A stretch of 56,102 bases of DNA from a virus (Duplodnaviria > Caudoviricetes): IMG/VR virus record IMGVR_UViG_3300032272_000014, positions 1 through 56,102 of that record. One strand, given 5' to 3'. Shown one piece after another: positions 4,371-21,873 of the stretch (positions within the stretch are counted from its first letter, which is position 1; each line of letters begins with the position of its first letter). The position numbers and the translations under genes are program-made. The notes under the pieces were generated by a model. It did no database searches and was not told where the DNA came from. It saw only the letters and a list, made by a program, of their open reading frames with translations.

Positions 4371-4390
4371 CCTTCGGACGCATCCAGAAA

Positions 4391-5489: not shown

Positions 5490-5678
5490 TTAAATATCGT
5501 CTTTTATATCATCTCTAGTTATTACTTTCGCTTCGTTAACAACAACACTACCTATACGTAATTGCTCTTCAATACCATTTAATTTGTGTAGTAATTTAGA
5601 TTCTGCTTTTATAGATATTTCACCCATATTTTGAAGATGTAATACCTCATATCTTAATTCTTTAATCTTGTCTTTCAT
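5490..5678 (-). CDS. Junction-spanning small protein (EQLRIGSV|V)
   Basis: Site core 5544-5546 read as in-frame Val. Confidence 0.65.
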   Translation of the reverse strand: MKDKIKELRYEVLHLQNMGEISIKAESKLLHKLNGIEEQLRIGSVVVNEAKVITRDDIKDDI

Positions 5679-5775
5679 TTTTGTTATTTTAAGTTATTAA
5701 TCCACGCAACTACGTATAGCCTTTGCCGTTAGAGTGCATTAAAACGCACAATAACAATGTATAAACAAAATACGC

Positions 5776-5979
5776 TCATTCACCACCTAGCTTTTTTAGA
5801 TACCAATTAATATCTTTGCCAGTAGATTTTTTACGCATTTCATCTAAGTCATTTTTAACCTTTTCTTTATTTGTTAATATGTACTTTCTTAGTGCAATCT
5901 TAGCTTTATCAAATTTATCCATTCGCTTTACTTTGTTTATACCTTTGTTAGCGTTCATTGTCTTTTGCTTTTTAACCAT
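5776..5979 (-). CDS. Hypothetical protein in attC loop (true start probably internal MDKFDK)
   Basis: ORF track; loop 5753-5949. Confidence 0.5.
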   Translation of the reverse strand: MVKKQKTMNANKGINKVKRMDKFDKAKIALRKYILTNKEKVKNDLDEMRKKSTGKDINWYLKKLGGE

Positions 5980-6197
5980 TCTTTTAAGCTCTCGTTTGTT
6001 TCGGTGTTTAATGCTTCGTCAATCTTTCGTTCTAATTCTACCAAATCCAACGTAACGCTAACACGTTGTATAAGTAATTGCTTTTCACAGTAATTATCAG
6101 CCAACTTTACTAATTCATTAAACACATAGTCATTACCCAATAAGCTGTCAGGGTCAGGGTGTTCTGTTCTTACAAATTCTAAAAATCCTTTATACAT
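5955..6197 (-). CDS. Junction-spanning small protein (QLLIQRV|S)
   Basis: Core 6060-6062 in frame. Confidence 0.65.
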   Translation of the reverse strand: MYKGFLEFVRTEHPDPDSLLGNDYVFNELVKLADNYCEKQLLIQRVSVTLDLVELERKIDEALNTETNESLKEWLKSKRQ

Positions 6198-6291
6198 ATC
6201 TATTAAGTTTATTAATTATTCACGCAACTACTCATACAACCATACGTTGTAAAACATTAAAACGATTTTACAACACGGTATATAAAACAAA

Positions 6292-6507
6292 CTAACTTAG
6301 TGGTAATTTTTTAGCTATTAATTCATCCCAATGGTCAGTATGTGTTTTTATATCGTCAAACATTGTAATCGTGTACCAGCTTAATTCTGTTTTTGTAAAT
6401 AAGTTAAAGAAGTATTTTTTTTCAATATTCATTTTAACCTTTATTTCCCATTCACCATCACCAAAAAATCTCATTGGCATTTGCTCATAATTTAGTAAAG
6501 TTCTCAT
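6292..6507 (-). CDS. Hypothetical protein in attC loop
   Basis: ORF inside 6272-6554. Confidence 0.6.
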   Translation of the reverse strand: MRTLLNYEQMPMRFFGDGEWEIKVKMNIEKKYFFNLFTKTELSWYTITMFDDIKTHTDHWDELIAKKLPLS

Positions 6508-6564
6508 ATTAAGTTTTTATTTGTTTAATTGTTCGTTTCATATACCAATACGTTGTAAGTAATA

Positions 6565-6744
6565 CTAATCATCTAGTAAAAATCGAAGCAATTTTATTTG
6601 TGCGTTCAATTCGTTTCCTTCTTTTTGGTATTCTTGTACAACATCGTTATCTCTACAGTTTTCGTATTCATAATCAAACCACGCTACAATTAAAGCGTAT
6701 TCTTTTATTTTTCTTTCTAGTGCTTCTTTTACTTTTTTCTTCAT
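6565..6744 (-). CDS. Cassette hypothetical protein, 59 aa (MKKKVKEALERKIKEY...)
   Basis: Hand translation; fills cassette 6552-6784. Confidence 0.6.
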   Translation of the reverse strand: MKKKVKEALERKIKEYALIVAWFDYEYENCRDNDVVQEYQKEGNELNAQIKLLRFLLDD

Positions 6745-6982
6745 CTTATCAAGTTTTTAGTTATATACCCGTACTACTTACAACATCGTGTATATGGCAT
6801 TAAAACGACCACATACACACAGCGTTGTAATCACATTTAAAAACGTGTTACAACAATAAATATAAGTAATGCTTCACTTGGTTTTTAAACCATCTTTTGC
6901 AGATTATTACAGTTGTTGTCCATCCGAAAGGGTTATCTCTGTTTTTCATCGCACTACTCATATTCTTGTCATTAGCAAACAT

Positions 6983-7294
6983 TTATTTGTTAAGGTCTAT
7001 ACAAGTCGGGCAAGTTTCGTGTCCATCCATAAATTGATGCAATCCGCAAAAGTTGGTAAAACGTTTGCTAACATCGTGTATAGGTAATACTAACTTTCCT
7101 GCTTCATACAGAGTTATGTCTTTTAAATGCAAACAATCTTTAGGGTATTCATTCACGTAATAACTTTGCCCAACCAATTTGCAACTTTCACACATTCCTT
7201 CACCACAATACCATTCAATGTATTCAGGGCAACTTTTACTTCTACAAAATTCAGAGAAGTTGTTTACTTTATTGTTTGCTTTACTTTCGTTCAT
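6983..7294 (-). CDS. Junction-spanning Cys-rich protein (LPIHDV|S)
   Basis: Core 7070-7072 in frame; CxxC motifs on both sides. Confidence 0.65.
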   Translation of the reverse strand: MNESKANNKVNNFSEFCRSKSCPEYIEWYCGEGMCESCKLVGQSYYVNEYPKDCLHLKDITLYEAGKLVLPIHDVSKRFTNFCGLHQFMDGHETCPTCIDLNK

Positions 7295-7359
7295 AATTCA
7301 AAATTTTAGTTTTTTAATCCGTACTACCCATACACCAAACGTTACCAAACGTATACTGC

Positions 7360-7590
7360 TTAGTTACGCATATCATCAAAGTATCTTATTGCATCGTCAA
7401 TTGTTTCACAGTCTTTAAGTTCATTTACTATTTCACCAGCAGTAAACGATTTGGTAACACCGTGTATAGTTAATGCTCTAACCACCTTGTTAATTGTCTT
7501 TATATCTTCTGGAGGTATGTTATTTACCTTTCTGTGATTGTTTCTGTTTAAAATCTTTTTAAGCCTATTTGCTATCTCTGTTGCTGTCAT
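7360..7590 (-). CDS. Junction-spanning small protein (LTIHGV|T)
   Basis: Core 7456-7458 in frame. Confidence 0.65.
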   Translation of the reverse strand: MTATEIANRLKKILNRNNHRKVNNIPPEDIKTINKVVRALTIHGVTKSFTAGEIVNELKDCETIDDAIRYFDDMRN

Positions 7591-7661
7591 TGTTATATTT
7601 ATTAAATTAAGTTCTTAAAAGTCGCACTAACCATACACAAGTACCGTTGTAGTGCATTGTG

Positions 7662-7889
7662 CTAAATATCTTCTATCACTATTTTAGGTATGTGTTTAGT
7701 CACTTTAAACTTAACCCTAACGGTTTTACCATCTAAGTCGCACAACGTACCCTCTGGCACAACAACACTACCTATACGTAATTGCTCTTGTTCGCATTCA
7801 TTCCACACCCGTAACAAGGCTTGTTGCACACTTATATTATCAGGATAAGCTGTCTTACTTTGTATTTCTTTAATTCTGTCTGTTGTCAT
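7662..7889 (-). CDS. Junction-spanning small protein (EQLRIGSV|V)
   Basis: Core 7764-7766 in frame. Confidence 0.65.
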   Translation of the reverse strand: MTTDRIKEIQSKTAYPDNISVQQALLRVWNECEQEQLRIGSVVVPEGTLCDLDGKTVRVKFKVTKHIPKIVIEDI

Positions 7890-7957
7890 TATTTCTATTT
7901 ATTAAGTTTTGTGTTTAATTTTCCGCAACTATGCATAGCCTTGTCCATTAACTACAA

Positions 7958-8089
7958 TTATTTTTTTGCCTTCAACACGTGCTCACTCAGTACGTCTTGT
8001 ATGTAGTTTTTTAAGTCCTTATTTGCAAGCACAGCTAATATCTTTAAAGGCTGTACATCTTCTTCTTTTATGTCTATATTTTTACGCAT
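7958..8089 (-). CDS. Ribbon-helix-helix-like regulator, 43 aa
   Basis: Hand translation MRKNIDIKEEDVQPLKILAVLANKDLKNYIQDVLSEHVLKAKK. Confidence 0.55.
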   Translation of the reverse strand: MRKNIDIKEEDVQPLKILAVLANKDLKNYIQDVLSEHVLKAKK

Positions 8090-8225
8090 CTTTTAAATCT
8101 TTATAATAATCAACAATCTTTCTCGCTATTACAAAATACATCGTAGGCGAAATTGAAACACCACCATTTGCATAATCTCTTTGCTCGTGGTATTTCAATA
8201 TTTCTATAATTTTTTCTTCAGTCAT
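8082..8225 (-). CDS. Hypothetical protein, 47 aa
   Basis: Hand translation MTEEKIIEILKYHEQRDY...; tightly coupled to neighbours. Confidence 0.5.
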   Translation of the reverse strand: MTEEKIIEILKYHEQRDYANGGVSISPTMYFVIARKIVDYYKDLKDA

Positions 8226-8228
8226 AAT

Positions 8229-8393
8229 TTATTGTTTTGCGTAAGTTGGAATCTTACCAGTTAAATACATTTTGTAAGCAAATTTAGTAACACCTTCAAA
8301 ATCGTTTTCTATATTTTGTAAATAAGAATCTTGTGAGTTATTAAAGTTGATTCTTGCAGTTCTAAATTCGTTGTAAGTTAATTGAGTTTTCAT
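8229..8393 (-). CDS. Hypothetical protein, 54 aa
   Basis: Hand translation MKTQLTYNEFRTAR...; follows promoter. Confidence 0.55.
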   Translation of the reverse strand: MKTQLTYNEFRTARINFNNSQDSYLQNIENDFEGVTKFAYKMYLTGKIPTYAKQ

Positions 8394-8422
8394 AATTTTT
8401 ATATTTGTTTGTTATTGTTATA

Positions 8423-8455
8423 CAAATATACATTATATATTCCATATACACAACA
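8423..8455 (-). promoter_or_regulatory. Bacteroidota sigma70-type promoter inside a cassette
   Basis: TTG-N20-TATATTTG matches -33/-7 consensus. Confidence 0.6.
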
Positions 8456-8587
8456 TTTATTTAATAATAATTCAAAAAAGTTTTGCTATCGCAATATGCC
8501 AACCCTCAAAATAACAGTAGTTAACAACGTGTATAACGCATTTGCGAAAAGCAAACGACGATTATACACAAGACCGTTACCACACAT

Positions 8588-8920
8588 TTAATGTGATAAT
8601 TTACCCGTTAAGCAATAACCACTACCATCAGGCTTACAAGTTGATTCAGACCATATCATTATAAGTTCTACTTTACCTTCGTATTTTAGTTGTTTAAGAA
8701 GTACAGTTAATATATCAACTGGTATTTCAGTATCTTTAGAAATAGCCCATTTCAATTTACCGTAACCTTTGCTTAACTTTTTTAAGTCATTAATAATAGC
8801 TTCTTTCATTTCTGCAATAGCAGGAGAAAAACGTGTGCTAACAATGGGTATATCACATTGCTTAGTTTCTTCTTGTTTTCTAAGGTTTCTTAATAACATT
8901 CTAAAATTTCCTATTTTCAT
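8588..8920 (-). CDS. Junction-spanning protein (QCDIPIV|S); C-terminal part winged-helix-like
   Basis: Core 8840-8842 in frame; KWAISKDTEIPVDILTVLLKQLKYEGKV. Confidence 0.6.
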   Translation of the reverse strand: MKIGNFRMLLRNLRKQEETKQCDIPIVSTRFSPAIAEMKEAIINDLKKLSKGYGKLKWAISKDTEIPVDILTVLLKQLKYEGKVELIMIWSESTCKPDGSGYCLTGKLSH

Positions 8921-8966
8921 AATTTATTTATTTAATTCGCAACTAACCATACCCAAACCGTTGTAT

Positions 8967-9215
8967 TCAATTAAAATGCCCTCGTCCGCTGCAAGTCAAA
9001 CAACTCTGCTTATCATCGTAGCTTTCGCCTTCCACAATTCCTGTACCATCACAACAAAGGCATTTTAACTGTTCGCTTTGCAATACAACATTGTATAAAT
9101 CAAATAACTCATTAGTTGCTTGTTCAATGCTATAATTACCATACTTAAATTGTTCTAATACCTCTTTTATATCTTCTTTCATATCGTTACTTGTTTTATA
9201 CTTAGCCGTTAGCAA
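8967..9215 (-). CDS. Junction-spanning protein (LYNV|V) with DnaJ-type CxxCxGxG zinc motifs
   Basis: CLCCDGTG and CLTCSGRG; core 9087-9089 in frame; true start probably MKEDIK. Confidence 0.65.
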   Translation of the reverse strand: MLTAKYKTSNDMKEDIKEVLEQFKYGNYSIEQATNELFDLYNVVLQSEQLKCLCCDGTGIVEGESYDDKQSCLTCSGRGHFN

Positions 9216-9310
9216 ACATTAAAACGATTTGCTAACACGTGGTATAGTGCATAGCTTAGGTTCGTGCCTAATTCAATAGTTTGTGTTTGTTTAACCATAA
9301 TTAAAATATT

Positions 9311-9562
9311 TTAATATTCCTTTAGTTCTGGTTTTCGCTCAATCACGTTTAAATGATAGTTTTTTATTATTTGCCTAACAACCTCTTTGGTATCTTCTTT
9401 AAATAAAGGTTTCATTTTACGTTCCATAACGTATTGAAGCTGTATAGTATAATAGCTGTTAGTCCATATAGTATCAGTATCTAATTTACCAAAACTATCT
9501 TGTAAGTCGCTAAATCTTTGTATTTGTTTATCTACAATTATATTTATGAGTTCTTCCAACAT
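9311..9562 (-). CDS. Hypothetical protein in attC loop
   Basis: Bracketed by perfect 21-bp IR 9297-9317 / 9561-9581. Confidence 0.65.
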   Translation of the reverse strand: MLEELINIIVDKQIQRFSDLQDSFGKLDTDTIWTNSYYTIQLQYVMERKMKPLFKEDTKEVVRQIIKNYHLNVIERKPELKEY

Positions 9563-9641
9563 ATTAAAATATTTTAATTATTACTTCAGTTCTTAATTCA
9601 ATCTTCGTACATTTCAAGGCTACGCACCATACCACTAAACG

Positions 9642-9950
9642 TTAGGCGTAATAGCTTTGGTTACGTCTATCCCTTTCTTCATTTTTTAGGTAATAAGCAA
9701 AGTACCAGTTAGGATTTCTTCCTTCTAAAAAAGCTTCTAATATCTCTAAACGCATTTGCTTTCCTTGCCATCTTATTGCATACTCGTCTGTTCCTACACC
9801 AACACCAAAGCTACTGCCTCTCATATTAACATAGTGGTCTAAATCAGCTTTTACCTTTTTATAAAGTTTAAAGTATTTAACAAACTTGTTTTGCATAACA
9901 ACGTGTATATCACATTGCTTTTCCGTACTTAATTCTTTGTTTTGTTTCAT
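9642..9950 (-). CDS. Junction-spanning protein (QCDIHVV|M)
   Basis: Core 9897-9899 in frame; stop codon lies in the next core. Confidence 0.65.
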   Translation of the reverse strand: MKQNKELSTEKQCDIHVVMQNKFVKYFKLYKKVKADLDHYVNMRGSSFGVGVGTDEYAIRWQGKQMRLEILEAFLEGRNPNWYFAYYLKNEERDRRNQSYYA

Positions 9951-10294
9951 TTTATTAAGTTATTTGATTATTCAATATTTCTGTTTATTTATACGCAACG
10001 TGGCATACACAAAACGTTAGCCTTCATTGTCTTATCACTTAATCCGTGATTCTTGTTTAAGTTTTCTATGTATAGTTCAATCATACATAGTTCTTTTTTA
10101 CTTAATTTTCTGTCTATCATATCCATAATTTTACGATTTCATATTACCATTCGTTAGCTACAATGGCGCAATATGAAAACTAAGCATTACGTGTTAGTGC
10201 GCCACAGTAGCTAACACGTAATATAAAAAATTGCTTAGGTCAGTTCCTTGTAATTAAAGTCGTTGCTTAATCGAAGAAAATAAAAAGCTAGTTT

Positions 10295-10504
10295 CTACAA
10301 TTTTTGCAAATGTTCGCTCTTATAAGCATTTATCATTTTACCATTTTCAAGTTCAATCTGTATTTTAAATCCGTAAAAGGCATTTTTTTCAGTGCAATAA
10401 TCTTCTACATTTTTAACAGTTCCTTCCATTCCTATAAAGTTTCCACCTCTAAAAAACACTTTAGTTTCTTTTGGGAATATCTCAGAGGGCAGTCTATTTT
10501 TCAT
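10295..10504 (-). CDS. Small KOW/SH3-like protein in attC loop
   Basis: KVFFRGGNFIGMEGTVKNV pattern. Confidence 0.5.
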   Translation of the reverse strand: MKNRLPSEIFPKETKVFFRGGNFIGMEGTVKNVEDYCTEKNAFYGFKIQIELENGKMINAYKSEHLQKL

Positions 10505-10581
10505 CGCTTTTTATTTTTGGTTTATCTATTAATTTCGTACTTAATTCAGCAACTTTTCATATTACTATTCGTTATATACAA

Positions 10582-10806
10582 TTAAACCGAGGCTAGATTT
10601 TTTATTATATATATAGCTTCTGCTTCTTCAATGTATTGCTTATCAGTTTTGTTTTCTTGATAGTTTAGGTGTATTGGCTTAAACTTGTCTTTTTGGTGTA
10701 GTATTACGCTTTTAAACTCACTTATTACAGGGTTTCTGTCTATAATAATAAAAAATCTTGGGTCACTTAACCAAAGTGTTTTCGCTGTGCTTTTGTATTG
10801 TATCAT
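10582..10806 (-). CDS. Cassette hypothetical protein
   Basis: Between IR GTTATATACAATTAAACC / GGTTTAACAGTATATAAC. Confidence 0.6.
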   Translation of the reverse strand: MIQYKSTAKTLWLSDPRFFIIIDRNPVISEFKSVILHQKDKFKPIHLNYQENKTDKQYIEEAEAIYIIKNLASV

Positions 10807-10972
10807 TTGCTAATGTATTTTAAAGGTTTAACAGTATATAACACTGTATAAAGTCTATTGCTTTTTAAAGCTTTATCAATGTTTAATTATTATTTGTTGT
10901 TTATTATCCACAATTCAAAGGTTTTTGTTGTTTATAAGCAACATACCTTATACAATTCCGTTAGGGCAAATA

Positions 10973-11272
10973 CTACTTATGCATTTTACCGCCATTTAAT
11001 TCACAAAGAAATTTCATAATAGTTTCCATATCAGTATTTCGGTTTGCGTGGCTTAAATAATCTCTTGGTTTTTCATAGTGGTAACTATTGCTTTCAATAT
11101 GCTGTTTGCAAGACTTTTCAGTTAAAAAGGCGTTCTGTAGTTTAAATACTTTTTGCCTGTTTACTTTTCGGTAATTATTTTCTAATATCTCGTCTTTTTC
11201 ATAGTCCGTTAACTCGTTGTATTTTTTTTCAACTTCATCTTCTTCATAATCATAATCTTTTTTAAGTTTCAC
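10973..11272 (-). CDS. Hypothetical protein, possibly N-terminally truncated
   Basis: GTG start directly after a GTT-type core (AAC 11275-11277 on +). Confidence 0.5.
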   Translation of the reverse strand: MKLKKDYDYEEDEVEKKYNELTDYEKDEILENNYRKVNRQKVFKLQNAFLTEKSCKQHIESNSYHYEKPRDYLSHANRNTDMETIMKFLCELNGGKMHK

Positions 11273-11296
11273 ATAACGCCATTGTATTACTTTAGG

Positions 11297-11752
11297 CTAT
11301 CGACGAGACTTGAGCATATTTACATACGGTTTTAATCGTGTTTCTCTAAAATCTAATACATCACTGTCGCTCATATCGTTTAAAGCGTTTATAATAGATG
11401 TTTTAACACTAATAGTAGTATTTGGAATTGGTGTGACTTTTATATACACTTTACTTACTTTTAGATTGTATTGATCTATAATTTCATTATAAACTTCTTT
11501 ATACTTATCGTTAATAACATCAAAAGTTCTTTTGTTAAAATATATTAAATGATGAGGACAACCCAAAGAATCACCTATTTCTTGAAGGGTATATCCATAA
11601 TCCATCTCGTAAGATAATTTAGAATAAACTTTTCTAGCATAAGCATTATGCCTTTTTCTATTCTTAGCTCTTATATCCGACTCTAATTTACTGTCAATAA
11701 TATCTATTAGTTGGTCTAGTTTCATTTCTGTTTGTTTTAATTGTTCAATCAA
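11297..11752 (-). CDS. DnaA domain IV-like HTH DNA-binding protein
   Basis: RKRHNAYARKVY...YTLQEIGDSLGCPHHLI. Confidence 0.55.
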   Translation of the reverse strand: MIEQLKQTEMKLDQLIDIIDSKLESDIRAKNRKRHNAYARKVYSKLSYEMDYGYTLQEIGDSLGCPHHLIYFNKRTFDVINDKYKEVYNEIIDQYNLKVSKVYIKVTPIPNTTISVKTSIINALNDMSDSDVLDFRETRLKPYVNMLKSRR

Positions 11753-11802
11753 ATGTATATAACTTTATTAACATTAAGAAGAACTTTAACACTTTTTAAC
11801 AT

Positions 11803-12048
11803 TTAATAAATCACACCCTTACCTTTTTGTGTAGCGAAGGCGTTAAAACCATTTTTCTTTAATTGATCTATCCTTAATTTCTGTAAAGGCTTTAAAGTAT
11901 CATTAGGTTCTTTAACTTCAATCCATGTTGTTATACCATTTTTCATAGCCATAACATCTGGATAACCCGACTTATTTAATCGTATGGTTTTTAACACATC
12001 GTAACCCATTGACTCGTATTTACTTATTATTTCCTCTTGATATGTCAT
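11803..12048 (-). CDS. VRR-NUC / PD-(D/E)xK nuclease
   Basis: GYPDV...WIEVK...LKPLQ; next to helicase. Confidence 0.8.
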   Translation of the reverse strand: MTYQEEIISKYESMGYDVLKTIRLNKSGYPDVMAMKNGITTWIEVKEPNDTLKPLQKLRIDQLKKNGFNAFATQKGKGVIY

Positions 12049-13265
12049 TAATATTGCTTTTTAAATACTGATGTTGTATATGATTTTTTATTCATTACTT
12101 GTTTATAAATCTTTTCCTCGATACCACCTTCAGAAAATATCCAATAGATGTCATTTGACTTTCGCTGCATAGTTGTAAGTCTATCTCTACTTTGCCAATA
12201 GTTCTTAGCACTAAAATCTATGTTATAGTAAACCAGGTAATCAGCTTCCTTTAAAGAAATACCTTCACTTCCACTTACAATCTGTAGAGCAATATGCTTA
12301 TCCGTAGCATTGAACTCATCTAAATCATTGGTTAACCTATCACCGAATACTTGCTTTAGTGCTTCATACTCAGCCTTAAACTTATAAAAAACACCTATTT
12401 TAGAGTTACCGAAATGGGAACTTATGAATTTAGATTTACTTAAATCAAAGGCACTACTACTTTTATCTTCAAATAATACAGTACCACTAAAAATCTGGTG
12501 TAACTTCTGCATTTCCTTAACTGCTGTATCAGCCATAATCTCTCGACCATCCTTAGCTATAACGAATTTATCCTTAGATAGTCTCTTCGCTAAAGCGTAT
12601 GTAGAATCATTCATCTTTACTTTTAATACATTCTCTATTACCTTAGTCTCAAAACCTGCTTCAGCTTGTGTAAAAGTAAGCATATAGGGTTTTATAATAG
12701 GTTTAATCAGGTGCATATAAGCATTACTATAATCTTTTACCACTGCATACCCTAAACGCCTATCTTTAACATCTACAAAATCTTTAGCCCACTTATAAAA
12801 TGTAGTGTATTTAAACGGATTTCTTTTACTACACCAAAATTGGTGAAATATTTGAGAGTATGACTCTGGATGAGGTGTACCACTTAAAAAAATCATAGGT
12901 AAATGACTGTAATTGTCTTTAATAAACCTAGTCATTTTATTAGCTTTAGGAAAAGCACCGTTTCTGTGGTGTTCATCGCTAATAAGAAAATCATAATCAT
13001 CTATAAACTTATGGGCTGATTCATTATTAATTACCGTAAGATTGAACGTAAAACCAAAGTTTTTATAGTCATCTTCTATAGACGATATTGCTTTCTTTTT
13101 AGTAAGAAATAGCACTTTCTTAGCACCGTAAAGCTGTGCAGCGTTTAAAGATGTTAAAGTTTTACCTGTTCTCACTTCCATAGACAAGTAAACAATATGT
13201 AATTCCTTTAAGATGTCATTTGCTCTATTGGAAAGTTCCTCCTGGTATTTTCTAAGTTCGTACAT
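12048..13265 (-). CDS. SF2 (SNF2-like) helicase
   Basis: RTGKT, SDEHH, LSGTP, EGISL, QSRDR motifs. Confidence 0.85.
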   Translation of the reverse strand: MYELRKYQEELSNRANDILKELHIVYLSMEVRTGKTLTSLNAAQLYGAKKVLFLTKKKAISSIEDDYKNFGFTFNLTVINNESAHKFIDDYDFLISDEHHRNGAFPKANKMTRFIKDNYSHLPMIFLSGTPHPESYSQIFHQFWCSKRNPFKYTTFYKWAKDFVDVKDRRLGYAVVKDYSNAYMHLIKPIIKPYMLTFTQAEAGFETKVIENVLKVKMNDSTYALAKRLSKDKFVIAKDGREIMADTAVKEMQKLHQIFSGTVLFEDKSSSAFDLSKSKFISSHFGNSKIGVFYKFKAEYEALKQVFGDRLTNDLDEFNATDKHIALQIVSGSEGISLKEADYLVYYNIDFSAKNYWQSRDRLTTMQRKSNDIYWIFSEGGIEEKIYKQVMNKKSYTTSVFKKQY

Positions 13266-13459: not shown

Positions 13460-13462
13460 TAT

Positions 13463-15802: not shown

Positions 15803-15806
15803 AAAA

Positions 15807-16001
15807 TTACTTATTTTTTAGTTTTTGCTGAACATGTAATAATGTTCCAATGTAATCGTGAAGTTGTTGAATTGTAAGGTATGATTCAGACCTTGAGTTT
15901 TCAAAGTCTAGTGTTATAATAACACATTCATTACCATCTTCTTGTATTGTTATTTCTGACTTGTATTCTTCAGTTCCAACACTATGAGAGTGAGACACCA
16001 T
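15807..16001 (-). CDS. Hypothetical protein
   Basis: ORF track. Confidence 0.5.
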   Translation of the reverse strand: MVSHSHSVGTEEYKSEITIQEDGNECVIITLDFENSRSESYLTIQQLHDYIGTLLHVQQKLKNK

Positions 16002-16059
16002 ATTTTATATTATATTAAGTTAAATTAAAAACCAAAGATACAAATAAAAACCGACTTTA

Positions 16060-16265
16060 CAAACAAAAACAGGAAGAACAGCAAAAAACAGCATTTCTAA
16101 AATATGCTGTATAGTCTAACTACTTGATAATCAGAACGAAACTTTACGAAAAACAGCATAACAGCATTTTTTCTACTTTTTCAATATTTTGAGTAAAATT
16201 TATATTTTTTAAAATATATATATAGTTAGAGTGTTTTTTGCCGTTTTGCTGTTTTACTGTTTTTA
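16060..16265. other. Putative replication origin
   Basis: Non-coding; AACAGCA repeats, inverted TGCTGT/TACTGT copies, AT-rich core, IHF consensus 16117-16129; upstream of primase. Confidence 0.45.
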
Positions 16266-16270
16266 CAAAT

Positions 16271-16306
16271 AAAAAAACCCTTACAAATCAATGTAAGGGC
16301 TTCTTT
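16271..16306 (-). terminator. Probable terminator
   Basis: CCCTTACA...TGTAAGGG hairpin with A/T tails. Confidence 0.55.
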
Positions 16307-16434
16307 CAGGTTAATTGCAACTATTTACTAAACCTCTTTTTCAGGTATATTATAAGTAACGTTATAAATAATATAGGGGGAACTGAAGCTATGAAATATA
16401 AAATATTCTTAGCTATGATTTTTACCTCTCTCAT

Positions 16435-17127
16435 CTAAAATGGAAGATCGTCTGGATCGTTATCACCATCAACTAACACAGGCTCTTTTACTTCGACATT
16501 ATCTACGTCCACTTCTGGTTTAGCGGTTACACTCTCGAAGTGTGAAACAATCTCTAAGTACTTTTCGTTAGCTAAAGCCATTTCAGCTTTGGTAAACGCT
16601 TTACCTATAGTAAAATCAGGTGTAGAATACTTAGTAGCACCCTTTTTATGGTCTGTAACGGTCTTGATTTCACACCAAGCACCTTCGACTGCATTTTCAT
16701 TCTCATTTAAGAAATCAGAATAAGCAGCTACAACAGCACCTTTAAGTTGTAGGTTAATAATATCACCATTCGTATCTACAACATAGACTGATCGATGGTA
16801 TTTACCACCTGCGTCTAGTATGTTTAATCTAATTTCACCGTAAATCCCTTCAGCAATATCACCACCTTTAAATGATTTAACCTTTAATGGTTCTTTAGAG
16901 ATAAATTTAACCTCGTTTGAAAAGATACGAGAACTACTAGCATCATGCCATCCTTTAATAGTATGGAAATGCTCTAGGAACATAAATTTAAAAGGCACTT
17001 CCACCTTTACATTCTCTGTTTTTGATTTATCCCAGTACTCAAAGCACTTGTCGTTTGATTTCCACTCTAAGAATTTAGTGGCAGGATTTTTTCTTGTTTC
17101 TGTTTGATTTAATGTTCTTCTTGACAT
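16435..17127 (-). CDS. Probable ssDNA-binding/recombination protein
   Basis: Acidic tail ending DDLPF; replication module. Confidence 0.55.
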   Translation of the reverse strand: MSRRTLNQTETRKNPATKFLEWKSNDKCFEYWDKSKTENVKVEVPFKFMFLEHFHTIKGWHDASSSRIFSNEVKFISKEPLKVKSFKGGDIAEGIYGEIRLNILDAGGKYHRSVYVVDTNGDIINLQLKGAVVAAYSDFLNENENAVEGAWCEIKTVTDHKKGATKYSTPDFTIGKAFTKAEMALANEKYLEIVSHFESVTAKPEVDVDNVEVKEPVLVDGDNDPDDLPF

Positions 17128-17198
17128 AATATAATTGTTTTAAAATACGATTAAATTGCCGTAACCGCTTCGGCTCAATTGTTCTGCAATGTAGTGTT

Positions 17199-17435
17199 TT
17201 ATTCTTTGTTATCCAACTTTTTCTTATTAATATAATCGTTTTTATATCTTCGTGCTGCTTTTAGTTTTATGCACAACTCCCTAAAAGTTCTATCATTCTC
17301 ATATAGTTCTGTTGTGTCTGGTAGTTTAGTGAAGTCAGTCATTGACTGACCAAGCATACCATCTAATTCGTTAAATAACGCTTGTTCTATAAAGTCGTTA
17401 TCCTCTATTTCTACTTTAATTATTATTATCCTCAT
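17199..17435 (-). CDS. Hypothetical protein
   Basis: ORF track. Confidence 0.55.
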   Translation of the reverse strand: MRIIIIKVEIEDNDFIEQALFNELDGMLGQSMTDFTKLPDTTELYENDRTFRELCIKLKAARRYKNDYINKKKLDNKE

Positions 17436-17437
17436 AT

Positions 17438-17965
17438 CTATTTTAAATTAATTTCTAACCCTATAAACCCACTGAATCGGATTTCGTTTTTGCTATACAT
17501 ATATTTTAAATCCTTACGCTCTGTAAGTTGACCTACAACAGAAGCTTTGATGGTGTTATTTATAACATAAGCAATCTCGCCACTACCACCAAACGAAAAG
17601 AATGACTTACCATACCTATCTATAAACCCCCAACCACCAAATAGTGAGGCTTCAAAGTTGTTTACTACCAACTCATTAAAAGTGTACCCAACGTTAGCTG
17701 AGTATCGTTTATAGCTTCCTTCTATTTCAGCATATTCAAATTCAGGAAATACCACTAAATATCCAAACGCTTGTTGGTTTGATTGCATCTTTAACCTTGC
17801 AAGTATATTAATAGTTCCTGCGTCATTACCAACATCATCACCTATCAACCCAAGTCTTACGTCCTGGTGTATGGATAGTGATACGTTAGATTGTGCTAAA
17901 GCAATACTACTTAGCGTTATAATCAATATAACTAGCACAATTTCCTTTACGTTTATCTTTCTCAT
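17438..17965 (-). CDS. Signal-peptide protein, probable small outer-membrane beta-barrel
   Basis: Signal ending ALA-Q; alternating aromatic/Gly strands; C-terminus GFIGLEINLK. Confidence 0.6.
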   Translation of the reverse strand: MRKINVKEIVLVILIITLSSIALAQSNVSLSIHQDVRLGLIGDDVGNDAGTINILARLKMQSNQQAFGYLVVFPEFEYAEIEGSYKRYSANVGYTFNELVVNNFEASLFGGWGFIDRYGKSFFSFGGSGEIAYVINNTIKASVVGQLTERKDLKYMYSKNEIRFSGFIGLEINLK

Positions 17966-18067
17966 GTCGTTATAGGTTCGTTAATTACTAAAGCTATGAT
18001 AACACATACAACTATTCCTATTCCTATTGCTGCTGAGAATGCTAACTTATAGTTTATTTCTTTTGAT

Positions 18068-18322
18068 TTATCTTTCATAGTTTTTAATTAATTGTTCTAA
18101 TACATCTACTTCTAGTAAGTCATTAACTTCTAAAAACTCATTAATTGTTTTAGGTTGTCTTTTTATCTTATGTGTTATAATATCAGGTGCTTCAAAATTT
18201 TCGTATGAATACAGGTGGTAAATATATGTACGCCTACCTTTGCCTAATAATGAACACCAGTCTGTGTCGCACTCACCACCTACGTAATGCAATTCTAATA
18301 CTTCTTTTACTTTTTTACTCAT
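18068..18322 (-). CDS. Hypothetical protein
   Basis: ORF track. Confidence 0.55.
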   Translation of the reverse strand: MSKKVKEVLELHYVGGECDTDWCSLLGKGRRTYIYHLYSYENFEAPDIITHKIKRQPKTINEFLEVNDLLEVDVLEQLIKNYER

Positions 18323-18481
18323 AATTTCTAGTTTATTTAATTATTTTCTTAATTTCGTTTACGTAATATCTTAAAACAGTTTGTTTAACCGCTGTATCAT
18401 CATTGTAATAATGTGAATCTACTTCTACCCTACCGTTTATAATTGTTGTCTTTACTAAAGGTTCGTTTAAATTTCTCATAA

Positions 18482-18799
18482 TTATGATTCTATAGCTATT
18501 TCTAACCATGTTAATATTTTATCTTCTTGTTTAGCCGTTAGCTTAACTTCATCACTTCTAACATTATAAATAGAATTGATTTTAAACTCACAATCTGTTA
18601 AGTGACCTTCATAATCTCTTTTTAAATCAAATTCAATAAAGAAGTATAGATCGTTGTCATCATCATCATAAACACATATTTCTTTTTCCACCTTAATAGA
18701 TGATCCACTCGCACCATCATAATCCCAATCCCAAAGAAATGCACTAATGGTTGGTAAGTTCTCGCACATTTGCGTAATTTGTAAGTCTGTAATTTTCAT
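18482..18799 (-). CDS. Acidic hypothetical protein, first gene of leftward operon
   Basis: ORF track. Confidence 0.6.
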   Translation of the reverse strand: MKITDLQITQMCENLPTISAFLWDWDYDGASGSSIKVEKEICVYDDDDNDLYFFIEFDLKRDYEGHLTDCEFKINSIYNVRSDEVKLTAKQEDKILTWLEIAIES

Positions 18800-18826
18800 A
18801 ATTTAAAGTTTTAATTGTTTGTTTGA

Positions 18827-18889
18827 CAAATATACAAAATTATTTAATATAAAAAAAGCTTTGATATTAAAAAGATTTGTTTATCTTTG
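18827..18889. promoter_or_regulatory. Divergent Bacteroidota promoters
   Basis: TATATTTG on - (18827-18834); TTTG-N18-TATCTTTG on + (18860-18889). Confidence 0.65.
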
Positions 18890-18905
18890 AATTAAATATC
18901 TAAAT

Positions 18906-19076
18906 ATGGATTTGACAAAGCAATTAAAAGAGAGAGGTGTTACTAAAGCAGAAATGTCTCGAAAAATGGGTGTTACATGGAATACGGTAAATAACTGGTG
19001 TAATACAGAATGGAAAAGATTGAGTTACACAACACGAGAAAGGATATGTAAACTGTTAGAGGTTGAGGTGTGCTAA
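18906..19076 (+). CDS. Cro/XRE-like HTH regulator, 56 aa
   Basis: Hand translation LKERGVTKAEMSRKMGVTWNTVNNW...ICKLLEV; not in ORF track. Confidence 0.75.
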   Translation: MDLTKQLKERGVTKAEMSRKMGVTWNTVNNWCNTEWKRLSYTTRERICKLLEVEVC

Positions 19077-19127
19077 CGTTAATCGTATATGATTTTTAAA
19101 AATTAATAAATAAAAACAGAATAAATT

Positions 19128-19349
19128 ATGTGGACAGAAGTAAGTAAACAGACACCAAAATCAGACCAAAACTATGAAGTGTATGGAATTGTAAATGTAG
19201 GTACTAAACACGAAACTAAACAGCAGTTTCAAGCCTACTTTAATACAGAAACCCAAAAATGGGAAAACCACAATTGGGATGATATAAACCCTTGCGATCA
19301 CGAAGTAAAGTTTTGGTATGATTTTGACCAAGTGAAAGAACCGATGTAA
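19128..19349 (+). CDS. Hypothetical protein (DUF551-like W...P...W pattern) in attC loop
   Basis: MWTEVSKQTP...VKFW. Confidence 0.6.
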   Translation: MWTEVSKQTPKSDQNYEVYGIVNVGTKHETKQQFQAYFNTETQKWENHNWDDINPCDHEVKFWYDFDQVKEPM

Positions 19350-19425
19350 TTTTTATTAATTATATACGGTGTTAGCATTAGCGAAGCGTAGTTTTAATTA
19401 ATGCTAACGTATTGGATAAGAATAG

Positions 19426-19683
19426 TTGCGAATTAAAAAACACAAAATTATGAGTTACGATGAAAACAGAATAAGCGACCAGATAGATGGAGGATTGCAC
19501 GAACAAGAGCAATTATTTTTATCTAGTGTTGTGCTTTCGTTGAATTACAACAAGGCAAAGGAATTATTTAATGAACTAATAAACGCTGGTAGAGATATGG
19601 AAAGACGAGATAATTTAAACCAACCATACATAAGCGGTGACGAATACTTACATAATGTGCTTGATAGGTACAAACCTCAATGA
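19426..19683 (+). CDS. Junction-spanning protein (LFLSSV|V)
   Basis: GTT 19528-19530 in frame. Confidence 0.65.
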   Translation: MRIKKHKIMSYDENRISDQIDGGLHEQEQLFLSSVVLSLNYNKAKELFNELINAGRDMERRDNLNQPYISGDEYLHNVLDRYKPQ

Positions 19684-19744
19684 AGCATAACAGACGAGTG
19701 TATGGTTAATAGCGTGGAATTAAGAACTAATTAAATAAAAAGAA

Positions 19745-19987
19745 ATGAATAAAAGTAAATTGTTAAAAGATTTGACAGAAGTTTATGATAATATGTCTGA
19801 TGATATAGACGAACCAAGAGAAGCACTAGGTTATGTGATAAGCGAATTAAAGCTATTAAATATACATGGTGTTATGCGTAGTTGTTTTGATGCTGGTGTA
19901 GAATACCAAAGGCAATTTGAAAGCAAACTATCTGAAAGCTATGACAAACCAAACTTTGAAGAATGGTATCAAAATAATTACGCATAA
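19745..19987 (+). CDS. Junction-spanning protein (LNIHGV|M)
   Basis: GTT 19871-19873 in frame. Confidence 0.65.
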   Translation: MNKSKLLKDLTEVYDNMSDDIDEPREALGYVISELKLLNIHGVMRSCFDAGVEYQRQFESKLSESYDKPNFEEWYQNNYA

Positions 19988-20087
19988 CGTGCCGATTGTA
20001 TGGCACGTATGAGGCACGAATATGGGCTATACAATATGTTAGCCATCTGGCGCGGGTTAATATAACAAAACTTAATTAAACAACGAA

Positions 20088-20465
20088 ATGGAAGAAAAAA
20101 ATTTTAGAATAGGAAACTTAATAGAAGAGCCAAAAGGGTTTACACATAAAATAGGAAGAGTGGACGAACTATCCACACGGGTAAGGCACGGACTGAAAAT
20201 ATCAATACCACACCTTACTGGATTTGGATTTGTGGAAGACAATAACGGCAACTACTGGATAGACTTACAAACTCATTATTTAGAACTTATACCCTCAAAT
20301 GGGTATTGGTATCCCATATACGCCCAAGTGCCTGAAATGAGCCATGAAGATGAACAGCGAGTAAGTACAAATAGGATTGAGTTCGTACACGAATTACAGA
20401 ACTTGTTTTTTGCGTTAACTGGTACTGAACTTGAAATTAAGGCAGAGCGTAGCACTTGTGGCTAA
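20088..20465 (+). CDS. Cassette protein, RIGN...LQNLFFALTG family (paralog of 52296..52649)
   Basis: Shared N- and C-terminal motifs. Confidence 0.75.
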   Translation: MEEKNFRIGNLIEEPKGFTHKIGRVDELSTRVRHGLKISIPHLTGFGFVEDNNGNYWIDLQTHYLELIPSNGYWYPIYAQVPEMSHEDEQRVSTNRIEFVHELQNLFFALTGTELEIKAERSTCG

Positions 20466-20579
20466 CGTTGAGTGTATGAGCAGTAGCCTACACGAACCAA
20501 CCAAAGAGAGATAAAATTAAATATTAAACAACTGCAATAGTTAAAAAGCCTGGCAGCTATTGCTTATACACATTGTTAG

Positions 20580-20780
20580 GTGCTTTTAAAATTAATGAAA
20601 AATTTAACAGTAAAAGAGTTAATTGAACAATTGAAAAAGTTTGATGAGAATAAAGAAGTACAAATTGGTGCAGTAGGTTTTTCAAGTAAAGACAGTTGGG
20701 ATGCTCCACTTGATTTAGAAGAACTTACAGTAGATGAGTTTAAAGGAATTGTTAGGATAAACTTTAGTCTTTACGGTTAA
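20580..20780 (+). CDS. Cassette hypothetical protein (LTVKELIEQLKKFD)
   Basis: ORF track. Confidence 0.6.
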   Translation: MLLKLMKNLTVKELIEQLKKFDENKEVQIGAVGFSSKDSWDAPLDLEELTVDEFKGIVRINFSLYG

Positions 20781-20844
20781 TTTTTATTGCACTTAACGGC
20801 TAAGGCTATGAATAGTTTATTTACGGATTAAAAAAACAGAAACA

Positions 20845-21156
20845 ATGGAAGAAATAACAAAAGAATTAAATAGTGCTACAGAGTACTTACGAGCAATGAA
20901 AAAAAGCGGACACCATAAAGGTGATTGCGATAATATATTAATGCACCTTGCTAACATAGAGGACTTAGTAAATAAATTATTTATAGCCAATGTTAGCGTT
21001 TCGTTTATAGAACAAGTAAAAAAGCAAATAGAATACCACGAAGAACAAGAAACCAACCGAAGCAAGGTAAAAGATTATAGACAAGCAATATACCACGACA
21101 ACAGGCGAGGTGCTTTAGAGGACTTATTATTATGGATTAAGTTAAATGAACGCTAA
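20845..21156 (+). CDS. Junction-spanning protein (LFIANV|S)
   Basis: GTT 20992-20994 in frame. Confidence 0.65.
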   Translation: MEEITKELNSATEYLRAMKKSGHHKGDCDNILMHLANIEDLVNKLFIANVSVSFIEQVKKQIEYHEEQETNRSKVKDYRQAIYHDNRRGALEDLLLWIKLNER

Positions 21157-21202
21157 CGTATTGCTATATGATTAGTGCGGAATTTAAACACGAAATTTAA
21201 TT

Positions 21203-21535
21203 ATGAAAACGGAACTACGAGAAAAGGTTTGGAAGAAATATGATTGCAAATGTTCCTATTGTGGCGAAGATTTGCAATACAAGAAAATGCAAGTTGACCA
21301 CATAGAGGCTAAATACTTGGGAGGTAAAGACGATATTGAAAATTACAACCCATCTTGTAGGCAATGCAATTTCTATAAAAGTACATTTAGCCTTGAACAA
21401 TTTAAACAGCAATTAGCCACAATAACTGAAAGGATTAAGAAACCATTTATAGTAAGACTTGCAATGAAGTATGGTATTATTTCTTTCAAACCTTTTGATG
21501 GTAAATTTTACTATGAAAAACTGAACGAGCATTAA
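21203..21535 (+). CDS. HNH endonuclease inside attC loop
   Basis: CSYCG...VDH...ENYNPSCRQCNFYK. Confidence 0.85.
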   Translation: MKTELREKVWKKYDCKCSYCGEDLQYKKMQVDHIEAKYLGGKDDIENYNPSCRQCNFYKSTFSLEQFKQQLATITERIKKPFIVRLAMKYGIISFKPFDGKFYYEKLNEH

Positions 21536-21585
21536 TTATATAGCGTGTTGTAGCATCGTTTTAATGTGCTACAACGTTAAAATGT

Positions 21586-21873
21586 ATGGTTAGTTGCGTA
21601 GAATTAAATAATAAACTTAATAAAAATATAATGGATTCAAAAGAAATATTAAAAAGATACTGTAAAGCGAAGTATGGAAATGAAATAGTTATAAAAACCT
21701 ATGACATTCAAGAAATTAAGCAAATAATAGACTTTACACAGCAATTAAATATACATAGTGTTAGCCAACAACGTGAACTGTTAATTGGCTTATTGACAAA
21801 ACTTGAAAATGGTGGTGGAAGTGCCTTTATTGATAAAGAACAGATTGTAGATGATTACTTAAAAGCCAATTAA
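21586..21873 (+). CDS. Junction-spanning protein (LNIHSV|S); true start probably MDSKE
   Basis: GTT 21760-21762 in frame. Confidence 0.6.
   Translation: MVSCVELNNKLNKNIMDSKEILKRYCKAKYGNEIVIKTYDIQEIKQIIDFTQQLNIHSVSQQRELLIGLLTKLENGGGSAFIDKEQIVDDYLKAN

Follow-up and report, generated by a model that had tools for sequence, protein, structure and literature searches.

The accessory small genes of a complete, phage-like 56-kb genome of the Flavobacteriia phage type (the window, i.e., the whole analysed stretch of 56,102 nucleotides) sit in two divergent arrays, the left one on the minus strand and the right one on the plus strand, in which each small gene is framed by a copy of a conserved hairpin and protein modules are joined in frame at GTT. 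Comparison with other sequences supports modular, in-frame shuffling over evolutionary time: two types of unit, denoted here platforms and cassettes, appear to have been exchanged many times across phages, the breakpoints falling at T|GTT and AAC|G. The evidence for exchange is comparative, coming from across metagenomes and not from within the lifetime of one phage. The hairpin itself belongs to a large family in phages of Flavobacteriia, sense-oriented and so far without annotation.

Within the window, HMM and covariance-model matches to the repeat are confined to positions 4750-10239 (minus strand) and 19347-21912 (plus strand) and have the gene-sense orientation every time, an arrangement far from chance. 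There are 23 left arms, which we count as 23 elements (Table 1). The sole motif in a Bacteroidetes-like promoter style, recognised by eye, lies outside the elements at ~18840-18890; it reads TTTG ... TATCTTTG and is located just 5' of the HTH gene that opens the right array.

We use labels coined here for the parts of the element (L box, helix I, R tail, cassette, platform). Along the gene strand, from its 5' end, the element comprises an L box, helix I, an apex or a coding insert, helix I', and an R tail. The L box comprises ~24 nt (consensus GCAATTAnnTATACAcGnT), helix I is GTT followed by six variable nucleotides, and helix I' is six nucleotides followed by AAC. In the closed form, the apex is 11 nt long (TCGTTTTAATG), and in the filled form a coding insert of 84-561 nt lies between CGTT and AATG, as is the case in 15 of the 23 elements; GTT...AAC makes an inner helix with the cargo inside. 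The R tail, G n5 GTATG nn TAGTTGCG, folds back to pair with the L box. A cassette is the GTT-to-AAC segment (helix I, cargo and helix I'); a platform begins with the R tail and continues through an AT-rich spacer, an ATG and a leader or N module to the next L box. The two units alternate along both arrays. The L box is mostly open only in the frame that reads L-x-I-x-x-V, so that the start codon and N module of a platform are fused in frame to the following cargo, the stop codon of which is usually located in the TAA of TAATG or xTAAC.

The best or near-best partner of each left arm is the next right arm downstream. The mean duplex energy is -22.7 kcal/mol for cognate, -16.1 for non-cognate and -11.2 for shuffled arms, the cognate arm ranks 1-3 of 21 for 13 of the 21 pairs, and, in 19 of 21, stability is higher for the sense than for the antisense strand. 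The predicted folds agree with the arm pairing and have a stem, internal loop, stem architecture, with modest z-scores (-1.1 to -2.7).

Table 1. Hairpin elements and associated genes of the two arrays (window coordinates)
Coordinates	Strand	Feature	L box reading or enclosed ORF	Remarks
10125..10239	-	Hairpin element, 45-nt loop		L box 10216-10239; helix I GTTAGCTAC, helix I' GTAGCTAAC, then R tail
9613..9923	-	Split element, 241-nt coding loop	CDIHVV in ORF 9642-9950	Stop in CTAAC; helix I weak, 6/7 positions paired
9180..9260	-	Complete short hairpin, intergenic		Apex TCGTTTTAATG; covariance model 55.5 bits
8548..8866	-	Split element, 249-nt loop	CDIPIV in ORF 8588-8920	
7919..8549	-	Split element, 561-nt loop	Holds ORFs 8229-8393, 8082-8225, 7958-8089	Pairing tentative: 8/9 positions, tie with another site
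7618..7790	-	Split element, 103-nt loop	QLRIGSV in ORF 7662-7889	
7313..7482	-	Split element, 100-nt loop	LTIHGV in ORF 7360-7590	L arm-R arm pairing present in minimum-free-energy fold
6943..7096	-	Split element, 84-nt loop	LPIHDV in ORF 6983-7294	
6796..6878	-	Short hairpin, 13-nt loop		Mini-hairpin in R tail, same TCGTTTTAATG apex
6524..6808	-	Split element, 215-nt loop	Entire ORF 6565-6744, start included, inside loop	Helix I: 13/14 positions paired
6218..6298	-	Complete short hairpin, intergenic		Top covariance-model match in window, 69.9 bits
5919..6086	-	Split element, 98-nt loop	QLLIQRV in ORF 5955-6197	R side overlaps start of ORF 5776-5979
5700..5779	-	Short hairpin, 10-nt loop, intergenic		Covariance model 40.3 bits
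5315..5570	-	Split element, 186-nt loop	QLRIGSV in ORF 5490-5678	Loop also contains ORF 5350-5484
4750..4865	-	Hairpin, long extended stem, 46-nt loop		End of left array
18906..19076	+	Cro/CI-type HTH protein gene		First gene of right array
19347..19436	+	Short hairpin, 20-nt loop, intergenic		
19504..19719	+	Split element, 146-nt loop	QLFLSSV in ORF 19450-19683	
19504-19553	+	Degenerate short hairpin		Within element 19504..19719
19847..20016	+	Split element, 100-nt loop	LNIHGV in ORF 19745-19987	Helix I: 12/13 positions paired; stop in ATAAC
20014..20494	+	Split element, 411-nt loop	Entire ORF 20088-20465 inside	Stop in CTAAC
20551..20825	+	Split element, 205-nt loop	ORF 20580-20780 inside	
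20968..21185	+	Split element, 148-nt loop	LFIANV in ORF 20845-21156	Cargo, GTTAGCGTT to AACGCTAAC, found again in L368 and L369
21203..21535	+	HNH endonuclease gene		PF01844, E 6.4e-11
21523..21603	+	Complete short hairpin		67.4 bits; stop codon of HNH gene in L box
21736..21912	+	Split element, 107-nt loop	LNIHSV in ORF 21586/21631-21873	

The original prediction for this region was that GTT is an in-frame Val codon in 12 of 12 junction-spanning ORFs. All 12 named ORFs are present at the coordinates given, and the claim is correct for 11 of them (5490, 5955, 6983, 7360, 7662, 8588, 9642, 19426, 19745, 20845 and 21586), all of these fusions being ORFs predicted from the DNA. The exception is ORF 8967-9215, which does not span any left arm; the TTG listed as its start belongs to the right half of a short hairpin, and the ATG at 9185 is a likelier start. 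All the linkers that had been quoted are found in the respective ORFs (those in Table 1, QLRIGSV twice, apart from QLFLSSV, which is the linker of ORF 19426), and so are the stops in the TAA of xTAAC at 9642, 19987, 20465 and 21156. Placing the ORF starts in attC loops was, by contrast, wrong for most: eight of the 11 begin at an ATG past the AT-rich spacer that follows the preceding right arm, and two listed starts, 19426 (TTG) and 21586 (ATG), fall in an R tail, the respective alternatives being the ATGs at 19450 and 21631. Altogether, 11 of the 23 left arms are read through, all in the GTT frame, which is the sole stop-free frame in seven of these and one of two open frames in four. The accompanying caveat, that stop codons in the arms may partly force this frame, is therefore justified and, because the Val frame is largely forced, the "12 of 12" carries little statistical weight by itself.

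Across metagenomes, N modules (with their start codons) and C modules combine independently of one another, in many pairings whose in-frame joint is the GTT, as had been proposed, and a homologue search with four of the 11 read-through ORFs (20845, 8588, 6983 and 19745) recovered the same N half with different C halves joined at this point. The halves do not always co-occur in the same pairs: the 32 homologues of ORF 20845-21156 comprise 16 that match the N side only, 16 that match the C side only and none that share both. The 48 homologues of ORF 8588 include 45 C-only, two N-only and a single weak match to both, the four of ORF 6983 include one match to both, two N-only and one C-only, and the matches of ORF 19745 break at Val43; these database "proteins" are predictions by gene callers, which favour long ORFs.

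At the DNA level, where the junctions come from two cargo families and one N module, homology begins at T|GTT and ends at AAC|. One locus (L366) has the N module and L box in common with the window, followed by a different helix I, and the window, L368 and L369 have only the GTT-to-AAC stretch in common, with a compensatory helix change in L369. A 716-nt contig from run X3 matches the window only at 6850-6971, with zero differences. In two locus pairs, only the upstream side and the hairpin are common to both members; in the L180/L183 pair, upstream sequence and helix I are common and the cargo is unrelated.

The evidence from the L boxes points in opposite directions. Those of the window, L368 and L369 differ right up to GTT, for which a precise cut directed by site or structure would be a better fit than a crossover inside the L box, whereas the L-box variants on proteins with the same N module (LNIDDV, LTIPVV) would fit scattered crossovers.

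Outside the window, the element is present in cultured Cellulophaga, Polaribacter, Riemerella and Maribacter phages. Loci elsewhere were collected by an exact apex pattern and are thus biased to canonical copies; among 123 pattern matches in viral contigs, 120 have 8-9 of the 9 helix pairs. The element is in sense orientation between co-directional genes: for 120 elements, the next ORF starts within 200 nt in 98 of 112 cases, and an antisense ORF covers only two. A model of this new hairpin family (R1: L box, 9-bp helix I, 11-nt apex, helix I') has seven matches in the window at E < 1e-3 and 108 in 100 other viral loci, where canonical copies are intergenic and usually single, and 0 in L122-L126, which by primase are the closest relatives. 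Of 50 split forms located on other contigs, 28 have a cargo ORF that begins within the loop and 19 have one that begins upstream of the L box, 16 of the latter in the GTT frame. A G.T wobble is conserved in 40 of 67, and the adjacent pair covaries between A-T (29) and C-G (15). Rfam 15 gives no match at gathering score in the whole window and, at E <= 5 in 4300-11200, only a chance miRNA match.

The repeats had originally been taken for attC sites of a shufflon-like system. In attC, R'' (RYYYAAC) on the 5' side and R' (GTTRRRY) on the 3' side form the outer base of a hairpin of 57-141 nt that follows the ORF, which thus remains outside; integron recombination involves the folded bottom strand, in which extrahelical bases are recognised by IntI. 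The arrays in the phage resemble integrons in that small cassettes are co-oriented, that the imperfect hairpin is strand-specific with conserved outer and variable but complementary inner parts, and that the point of exchange is fixed close to a GTT/AAC motif. However, the phage element has GTT on the 5' side and AAC on the 3' side of an inner helix, with the ORF enclosed, and a six-frame PF00589 search of the complete genome yields no tyrosine recombinase candidate at E <= 1, with positive controls in 14 of 14 genomes. Given this geometry and the lack of an IntI-type recombinase, the attC designation does not hold, and an integron identity was rejected; the genome is of the virulent phage type, without IntI, attI or Pc. 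R64-type shufflons, which the in-frame repeats resemble in permitting alternative C-terminal segments, employ a Rci-type recombinase and inverted sfx repeats that flank segments inverted within one genome. The phage has neither a dedicated recombinase nor inverted repeats and, because the L boxes in each array are all direct repeats in the same orientation, an inversion-type switch is impossible.

Modularity, junction positions and frame are apparent from the data; regarding the mechanism of exchange, we infer that these are probably hairpin-framed, in-frame cassette arrays, the modules of which would be traded in mixed infections, the conserved arms and the stem base guiding recombination via short-homology crossover or copy-choice at a stalled hairpin. 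The element itself would be conserved through a sense-strand function, most likely at the mRNA level (in processing, stability or control of translation), to judge solely by strand asymmetry and orientation. An integron or shufflon actively reshuffling protein halves inside this genome, which could draw on the in-frame Val in 11 read-through ORFs and on the L boxes of 7618..7790 and at 5539-5569, identical over 31 nt, is highly improbable given the missing recombinase and the non-attC geometry; moreover, a crossover between direct-repeat L boxes would delete genes, not swap them, and no rearranged forms of the genome are seen in the contigs of the source sample, where the contigs that break at the 31-nt repeat do so as a result of assembly. 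If, at the other extreme, the hairpins were solely RNA signals (for processing, stability or translation control between early cistrons) and the mosaicism were of the ordinary kind, the sense orientation, the G.U pairs and more stable sense strand, the stem, internal loop, stem architecture and the mostly single, intergenic canonical copies would all be accounted for. Yet the 16/16/0 split and the junctions at both stem bases are far more regular than general mosaicism, and five of 15 related locus pairs break at the element, which leaves this explanation with little probability.

Another scenario is a dedicated cassette system, specific for a site or a structure: a recombinase or nuclease, whether of the host, of a co-infecting phage or a phage protein that escaped recognition, would cleave and reseal the folded hairpin at the helix I base (T|GTT, AAC|G). 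Cassettes would then pass from one docking site to another, in the manner of integron cassettes and their attC and attI sites. Such a system is suggested by junctions that lie, at either end and in three unrelated contexts, no more than ~2 nt from the stem base, with unrelated adjoining L boxes; by a platform unit (X3 record 17) bounded at the same two points; by the empty form being a closed hairpin and the filled forms carrying cargo at the apex; by an identical 9-bp helix I with unrelated cargo in 20 of 21 pairs; and by the strand-specific fold with covarying stems, as in attC. In addition, small Xer/IntI-type tyrosine recombinases (PF13495 + PF00589, 240-277 aa) are encoded 36-133 nt downstream of the canonical element in seven loci, with homologues in ~16 of 119 viral loci. 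We nevertheless consider it rather unlikely, given that the phage has 23 elements yet no tyrosine recombinase, that no protein family common to the element-bearing loci was found, and that orientation is tied to transcription in 120 of 120 elements which, together with the built-in start and stop codons, argues for an RNA-level role; the precise-looking junctions could arise where similarity stops at the variable helix. Exchange guided by the arms in mixed infections remains our preferred reading. A tentative extension, less likely than not, is that Flavobacteriia phages possess a previously undescribed structure-specific system that cuts hairpin-ended GTT...AAC cassettes and joins them at the stem base into docking sites that supply a start codon and N module. 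If so, phages would have their own in-frame equivalent of the integron, for which the small Xer/IntI-like recombinases beside canonical hairpins of other phages might act.

Several other known systems are comparable in part. In polymorphic toxins, C-terminal domains are swapped at conserved junction motifs, e.g., VENN or PxxxxDPxGL; similarly, the short motif of the phage element, conserved at the DNA level as well, is an in-frame border for exchange of unrelated C-terminal modules. Unlike in these toxins, both the N and C sides vary in the phage, the modules are 20-85 aa long with no assigned function, no toxin/immunity pair is seen in the phage, and the motif is a hairpin arm with its partner behind the stop codon. 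Early genes of T7 and SP82 are separated by RNase III processing hairpins that are local and untranslated. The phage hairpins likewise are on the sense strand, have an internal loop and recur between early cistrons, but many of the predicted stems span a whole coding segment, with one arm coding.

Another close parallel is offered by the PeSL (promoter-early stem-loop) cassettes of T4-type phages, described as stem-loop repeats between small non-essential genes in hyperplastic regions, copies of which recombine such that gene modules are shuffled among related phages (PMC2839356). Both systems consist of short, conserved, repeated stem-loop cassettes, with module exchange between phages at the repeat. 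However, PeSL is an intergenic unit of a host-type promoter and a terminator, whereas in the phage element no promoter is recognised, the left arm is often predicted to be translated (11 of the 23 L boxes are inside ORFs), cargo is enclosed in the hairpin and protein halves are joined in frame. In two other loci (L162 and L166), leaders are fused to recognisable methyltransferases.

The phage genome that carries the element is a complete, 56,102-bp virus record carrying terminal direct repeats, the exact terminal repeat being 127 nt. It has a GC content of ~30% and encodes a terminase, portal and tail proteins, a primase-helicase, a helicase and an SbcD-like exonuclease, and the nearest named relatives of the primase come from phages of Flavobacterium, Polaribacter, Cellulophaga and Maribacter. 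No tRNA genes and no match to any Rfam family were found in the window, and no GenBank phage showed a blastn match to positions 11500-19400. Two arrays of small ORFs diverge from ~18,850, and the finding described here spans both of them together with the replication genes in between. The control region between the divergent arrays (18800-18905) contains a Bacteroidetes-like promoter motif, and the first plus-strand array gene encodes a Cro/CI-type HTH protein.

Both arrays consist of alternating units, namely platforms (R tail, spacer, ATG, N module and L box) and cassettes, which extend from GTT to AAC (helix I, cargo and helix I'). The underlying element, read on the gene strand, comprises an L box (~24 nt), helix I (GTT plus 6 nt), an apex, helix I' (6 nt plus AAC) and an R tail, which pairs back to the L box with an asymmetric internal loop interrupting the stem; L box, helix I, helix I' and R tail are our own labels. 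Of the 23 copies, eight form closed hairpins (loops of 10-46 nt), four of them with TCGTTTTAATG or a close variant as the apex. The remaining 15 are split copies, in which the apex holds 84-561 nt of coding sequence, the cargo. Mini-hairpins with the TCGTTTTAATG apex and arbitrary short stems also occur, often 3' of the R tail (6796-6812 in the window and many other loci).

Features of the two arrays and loci with hairpin-adjacent recombinases
Feature	Position or loci	Strand or location	Remark
Left array, hairpin elements	4750-10239	minus strand	
Right array	18,906 to ~22,150	plus strand	
HNH endonuclease gene	21203-21535	inside right array	stop codon in L box of closed hairpin
SbcD/Mre11-like exonuclease gene	22167-23417	beside right array	phrog_704, phrog_22398
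Hairpin-adjacent recombinase loci	L131, L132, L171, L189, L203, L233, L238; also L137, L207, L232	other contigs	

When all AAC/AAT sites within 1.5 kb were compared, the best complement of most L arms was the next R arm downstream, with typically 8-13 paired bases in helix I of cognate arms. The mean duplex energy of cognate L-R pairs is -22.7 kcal/mol versus -16.1 for non-cognate pairs and -11.2 for shuffled partners; the cognate R arm comes first among the candidate partners for only 5 of the 21 L arms but is within the top three for 13. In 19 of 21 elements, folding is more favorable for the sense strand than for the antisense strand. With RNAfold, short copies fold into the three-helix hairpin, and the copy at 7312-7486 shows long-range pairing of its L and R arms, at modest z-scores (-1.1 to -2.7). 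Two L boxes, 5539-5569 and 7759-7789, are identical over 31 nt with unrelated sequences on both flanks; the source-run contigs are broken at both positions, apparently through an assembly effect. The left array ends in a GC-richer stretch (4590-4865) with several long inverted repeats nested in one another (arms 4599-4629/4768-4798 and 4704-4730/4744-4770) and with an element copy that has an extended stem; this stretch, which has no Rfam match, could be a structured RNA.

All 12 junction-spanning ORFs of the original prediction are present in the window, as is every linker quoted for them, and the four stops placed within xTAAC are confirmed. An in-frame Val had been claimed for each of the 12; it is indeed encoded by the GTT of the left arm in 11, and ORF 8967 crosses no left arm at all, its listed TTG start lying within the right half of a short hairpin. 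The notion that these ORFs start in the hairpin does not hold for most of them, which begin at an ATG located after an AT-rich spacer 3' of the previous right arm. Of the 23 left arms in the window, 11 are read through, all in the GTT frame, a weak statistic because seven of these arms have no other stop-free frame (two frames are open in the remaining four).

The prediction that the same N half would be joined to different C halves at the Val is supported among the homologues of the read-through ORFs that were searched (6983, 8588, 20845 and 19745, four of the 11), the database proteins themselves being predictions. For ORF 6983-7294, there are four homologues, of which one matches both halves, two match the N module only (one of them with an unrelated C end after LPIHGV) and one combines another N module with the same C module. 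Among the 48 homologues of ORF 8588-8920, similarity is limited in 45 to the C module, which has either no leader or one of six or more distinct leaders, and in two to the N leader, which is followed by other C ends; one is a weak match to both. The 32 homologues of ORF 20845-21156 are divided equally between those with the N module only and those with the C module only (16 each, none with both), and the Val is the only nearly invariant column. Five of the six hits for ORF 19745-19987 match solely from residue 36-44 onwards.

The same pattern is seen in DNA. In locus L366, from another contig, the N module and L box are common with the window and helix I then differs; in the window and loci L368 and L369, the common stretch extends from GTT to AAC only, the L boxes being unrelated. 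L369 also has a compensatory helix pair, GTTAGCATT / AATGCTAAC, and changes of this type are mirrored in the proteins, where VS[V/I]SF accompanies NE[R/C] (11 concordant cases, 2 discordant). A 716-nt freshwater contig (sequencing run X3) matches the window, with zero differences, only at 6850-6971, which is one platform unit bounded by the end of AAT and by GTTGT. Identical 9-bp helix I sequences with unrelated cargo were found in 20 of 21 element pairs. Of 15 related locus pairs, not all of the one-sided ones independent (L160 is near-identical to L243, and L188 to L237), five retain similarity on one side only, and in four of these five it breaks off at the hairpin's 3' end. Members of the ORF 8588 cargo family are found between two closed hairpins (L376) and also as ordinary genes without a hairpin (L371-L375), in the latter loci behind a Bacteroidetes-like promoter. 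The search for related loci found no viral locus related to ORF 6983, ORF 20845 or the N-module alignment A6. As far as such sequence comparisons reach, they place the module junctions at two positions of the stem base and show repeated natural reassortment of the modules.

Under strict criteria (a regular expression plus exact helix complementarity, which misses imperfect helices), 50 split forms were detected in other viral loci; an L-box-only HMM lacked the power to do so (11 hits in 1 Mb, E 0.14-0.79). The cargo ORF starts inside the loop in 28 of the 50 and upstream of the L box in 19, of which 16 are in the GTT frame, and cargo stops are concentrated at the TAA of TAATG/TAAATG (20/50) or of xTAAC (16/50). 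Without the loop-motif requirement, the number of split forms rises to 67, and the helix extends by four more pairs: the first covaries (A-T in 29, C-G in 15), the second is G.T in 40, and the third and fourth are T-A in 40 and 38, respectively. Thus, the closed apex corresponds to the same extension with a minimal loop, and the fold is specific to the sense strand because the extension carries the conserved G.T. In loci L162 and L166, recognizable DNA methyltransferases carry fused N-terminal leaders with the L-box motif at their end (PTLPIHGV, PALRIGSV, PQLTIPRV), and in L166 at least, no alternative ATG could serve the methyltransferase domain, which argues that read-through of the L box is probably real.

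Other loci were collected by the exact apex pattern (GTT-N6-TCGTTTTAATG-N6-AAC). In viral contigs, it matches at least 120 stretches; across 119 loci among the matches listed, the L box is conserved and 8-9 of the 9 helix positions are complementary in 120 of 123 matches. In contigs of bacterial genomes, 55 of 123 matches fit this description, mostly one per locus and mostly in Bacteroidota MAGs, and the rest look like chance. By blastn, the element was identified in GenBank phages of Cellulophaga, Polaribacter, Riemerella and Maribacter; phages phi39:1 and phi19:1 of Cellulophaga baltica both have it, and the phi39:1 copy, for which the record gives no annotation, is located between gp03 and the gene for the small terminase. 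Around the 120 elements from other contigs among the matches listed, the flanking genes are co-directional, the next ORF starts within 200 nt in 98 of 112 cases, and a same-strand or antisense ORF covers only three and two elements, respectively. Upstream genes stop in or before the L box in 43 of 51 cases, and only one reads to the apex TAA. A covariance model of the element (R1) yields seven window hits at E < 1e-3 and, elsewhere, 108 hits in 100 loci, i.e., about one per locus (five in L209), so the window phage is unusually rich in elements. The closest phages by primase (70-79% identity; L122-L126) contain neither the element nor detectable homologues of the array proteins; hence the arrays were not inherited with the replication module, and these relatives are unusable for a presence/absence comparison. 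No protein family is common to all element-bearing loci. In marine (X2) and freshwater (X3) sequencing runs, contig depth shows sharp maxima over closed hairpins (at 6192-6415 and 9104-9327), suggesting that phages of other habitats carry the element in abundance.

Integrons, shufflons and the C-terminal swapping of polymorphic toxins are partial analogues. The attC/integron label of the original prediction was dropped given that the genome encodes no tyrosine recombinase, that GTT and AAC occur in attC in the reverse order and position, and that the cargo is inside the hairpin; the shufflon label fails as well, the repeats being direct and a recombinase absent. A curated RNA family (no Rfam match), a promoter role of the R tail (no Bacteroidetes -33/-7 pattern seen by eye) and a CRISPR-repeat mimic (helix I varies between copies) were rejected, as were a transposon TIR pair and an HUH origin, both of which misfit the covarying copy-specific helix and the cargo position. 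The 115 single-copy stretches with a 14-nt R-tail word in viral contigs were judged to be chance by an uncomputed estimate. By behavior, the closest system is PeSL of T4-type phages (PMC2839356). In open-access text, the apex sequence turned up only in an unrelated primer, and no element of this type was found described for phages of flavobacteria.

We propose that mixed infections would be the setting in which modules are exchanged, with the conserved arms or stalling at the stem guiding the recombination, and that the element is conserved for a role of the sense strand, probably at the mRNA level. Since essentially only one frame of the L box is open, the reading frame is kept automatically. 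A serious rival is that a dedicated structure-specific enzyme joins the modules at the hairpin: the junctions look precise in the comparison of the window with L368 and L369, and Xer/IntI-type recombinases lie directly behind canonical elements in seven loci, but the window phage itself encodes no tyrosine recombinase. Nucleases of the SbcD/Mre11 type cut hairpins, and the exonuclease encoded next to the right array is a candidate actor on the elements.

If recombination between modules is correct, the hairpin would be a natural modular cloning system for small phage genes, in which start-bearing N modules and cargo modules recombine with the frame intact; phages from marine, freshwater and sediment habitats would have used it repeatedly, and it would explain the assembly of fast-evolving early and accessory genes in Bacteroidota phages. 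The element itself is a widespread nucleic-acid element, so far unannotated, that can be modelled and searched for, and gene callers and annotators currently miss the hairpin structure, as in the phi39:1 record. The cultured Cellulophaga phages make testable both the role of the hairpin in mRNA and the activity that joins modules at the stem base.

The recombinases beside the hairpins are small tyrosine recombinases of 240-277 aa, PF13495 and PF00589 being confirmed for four of them; each begins 36-133 nt 3' of a canonical closed hairpin, and they have homologues in ~16 of the 119 viral loci among the matches listed. The R tail is TATnATATAT in most of the recombinase-adjacent loci. The HNH endonuclease of the right array has weak homologues in two other loci, L179 and L217.
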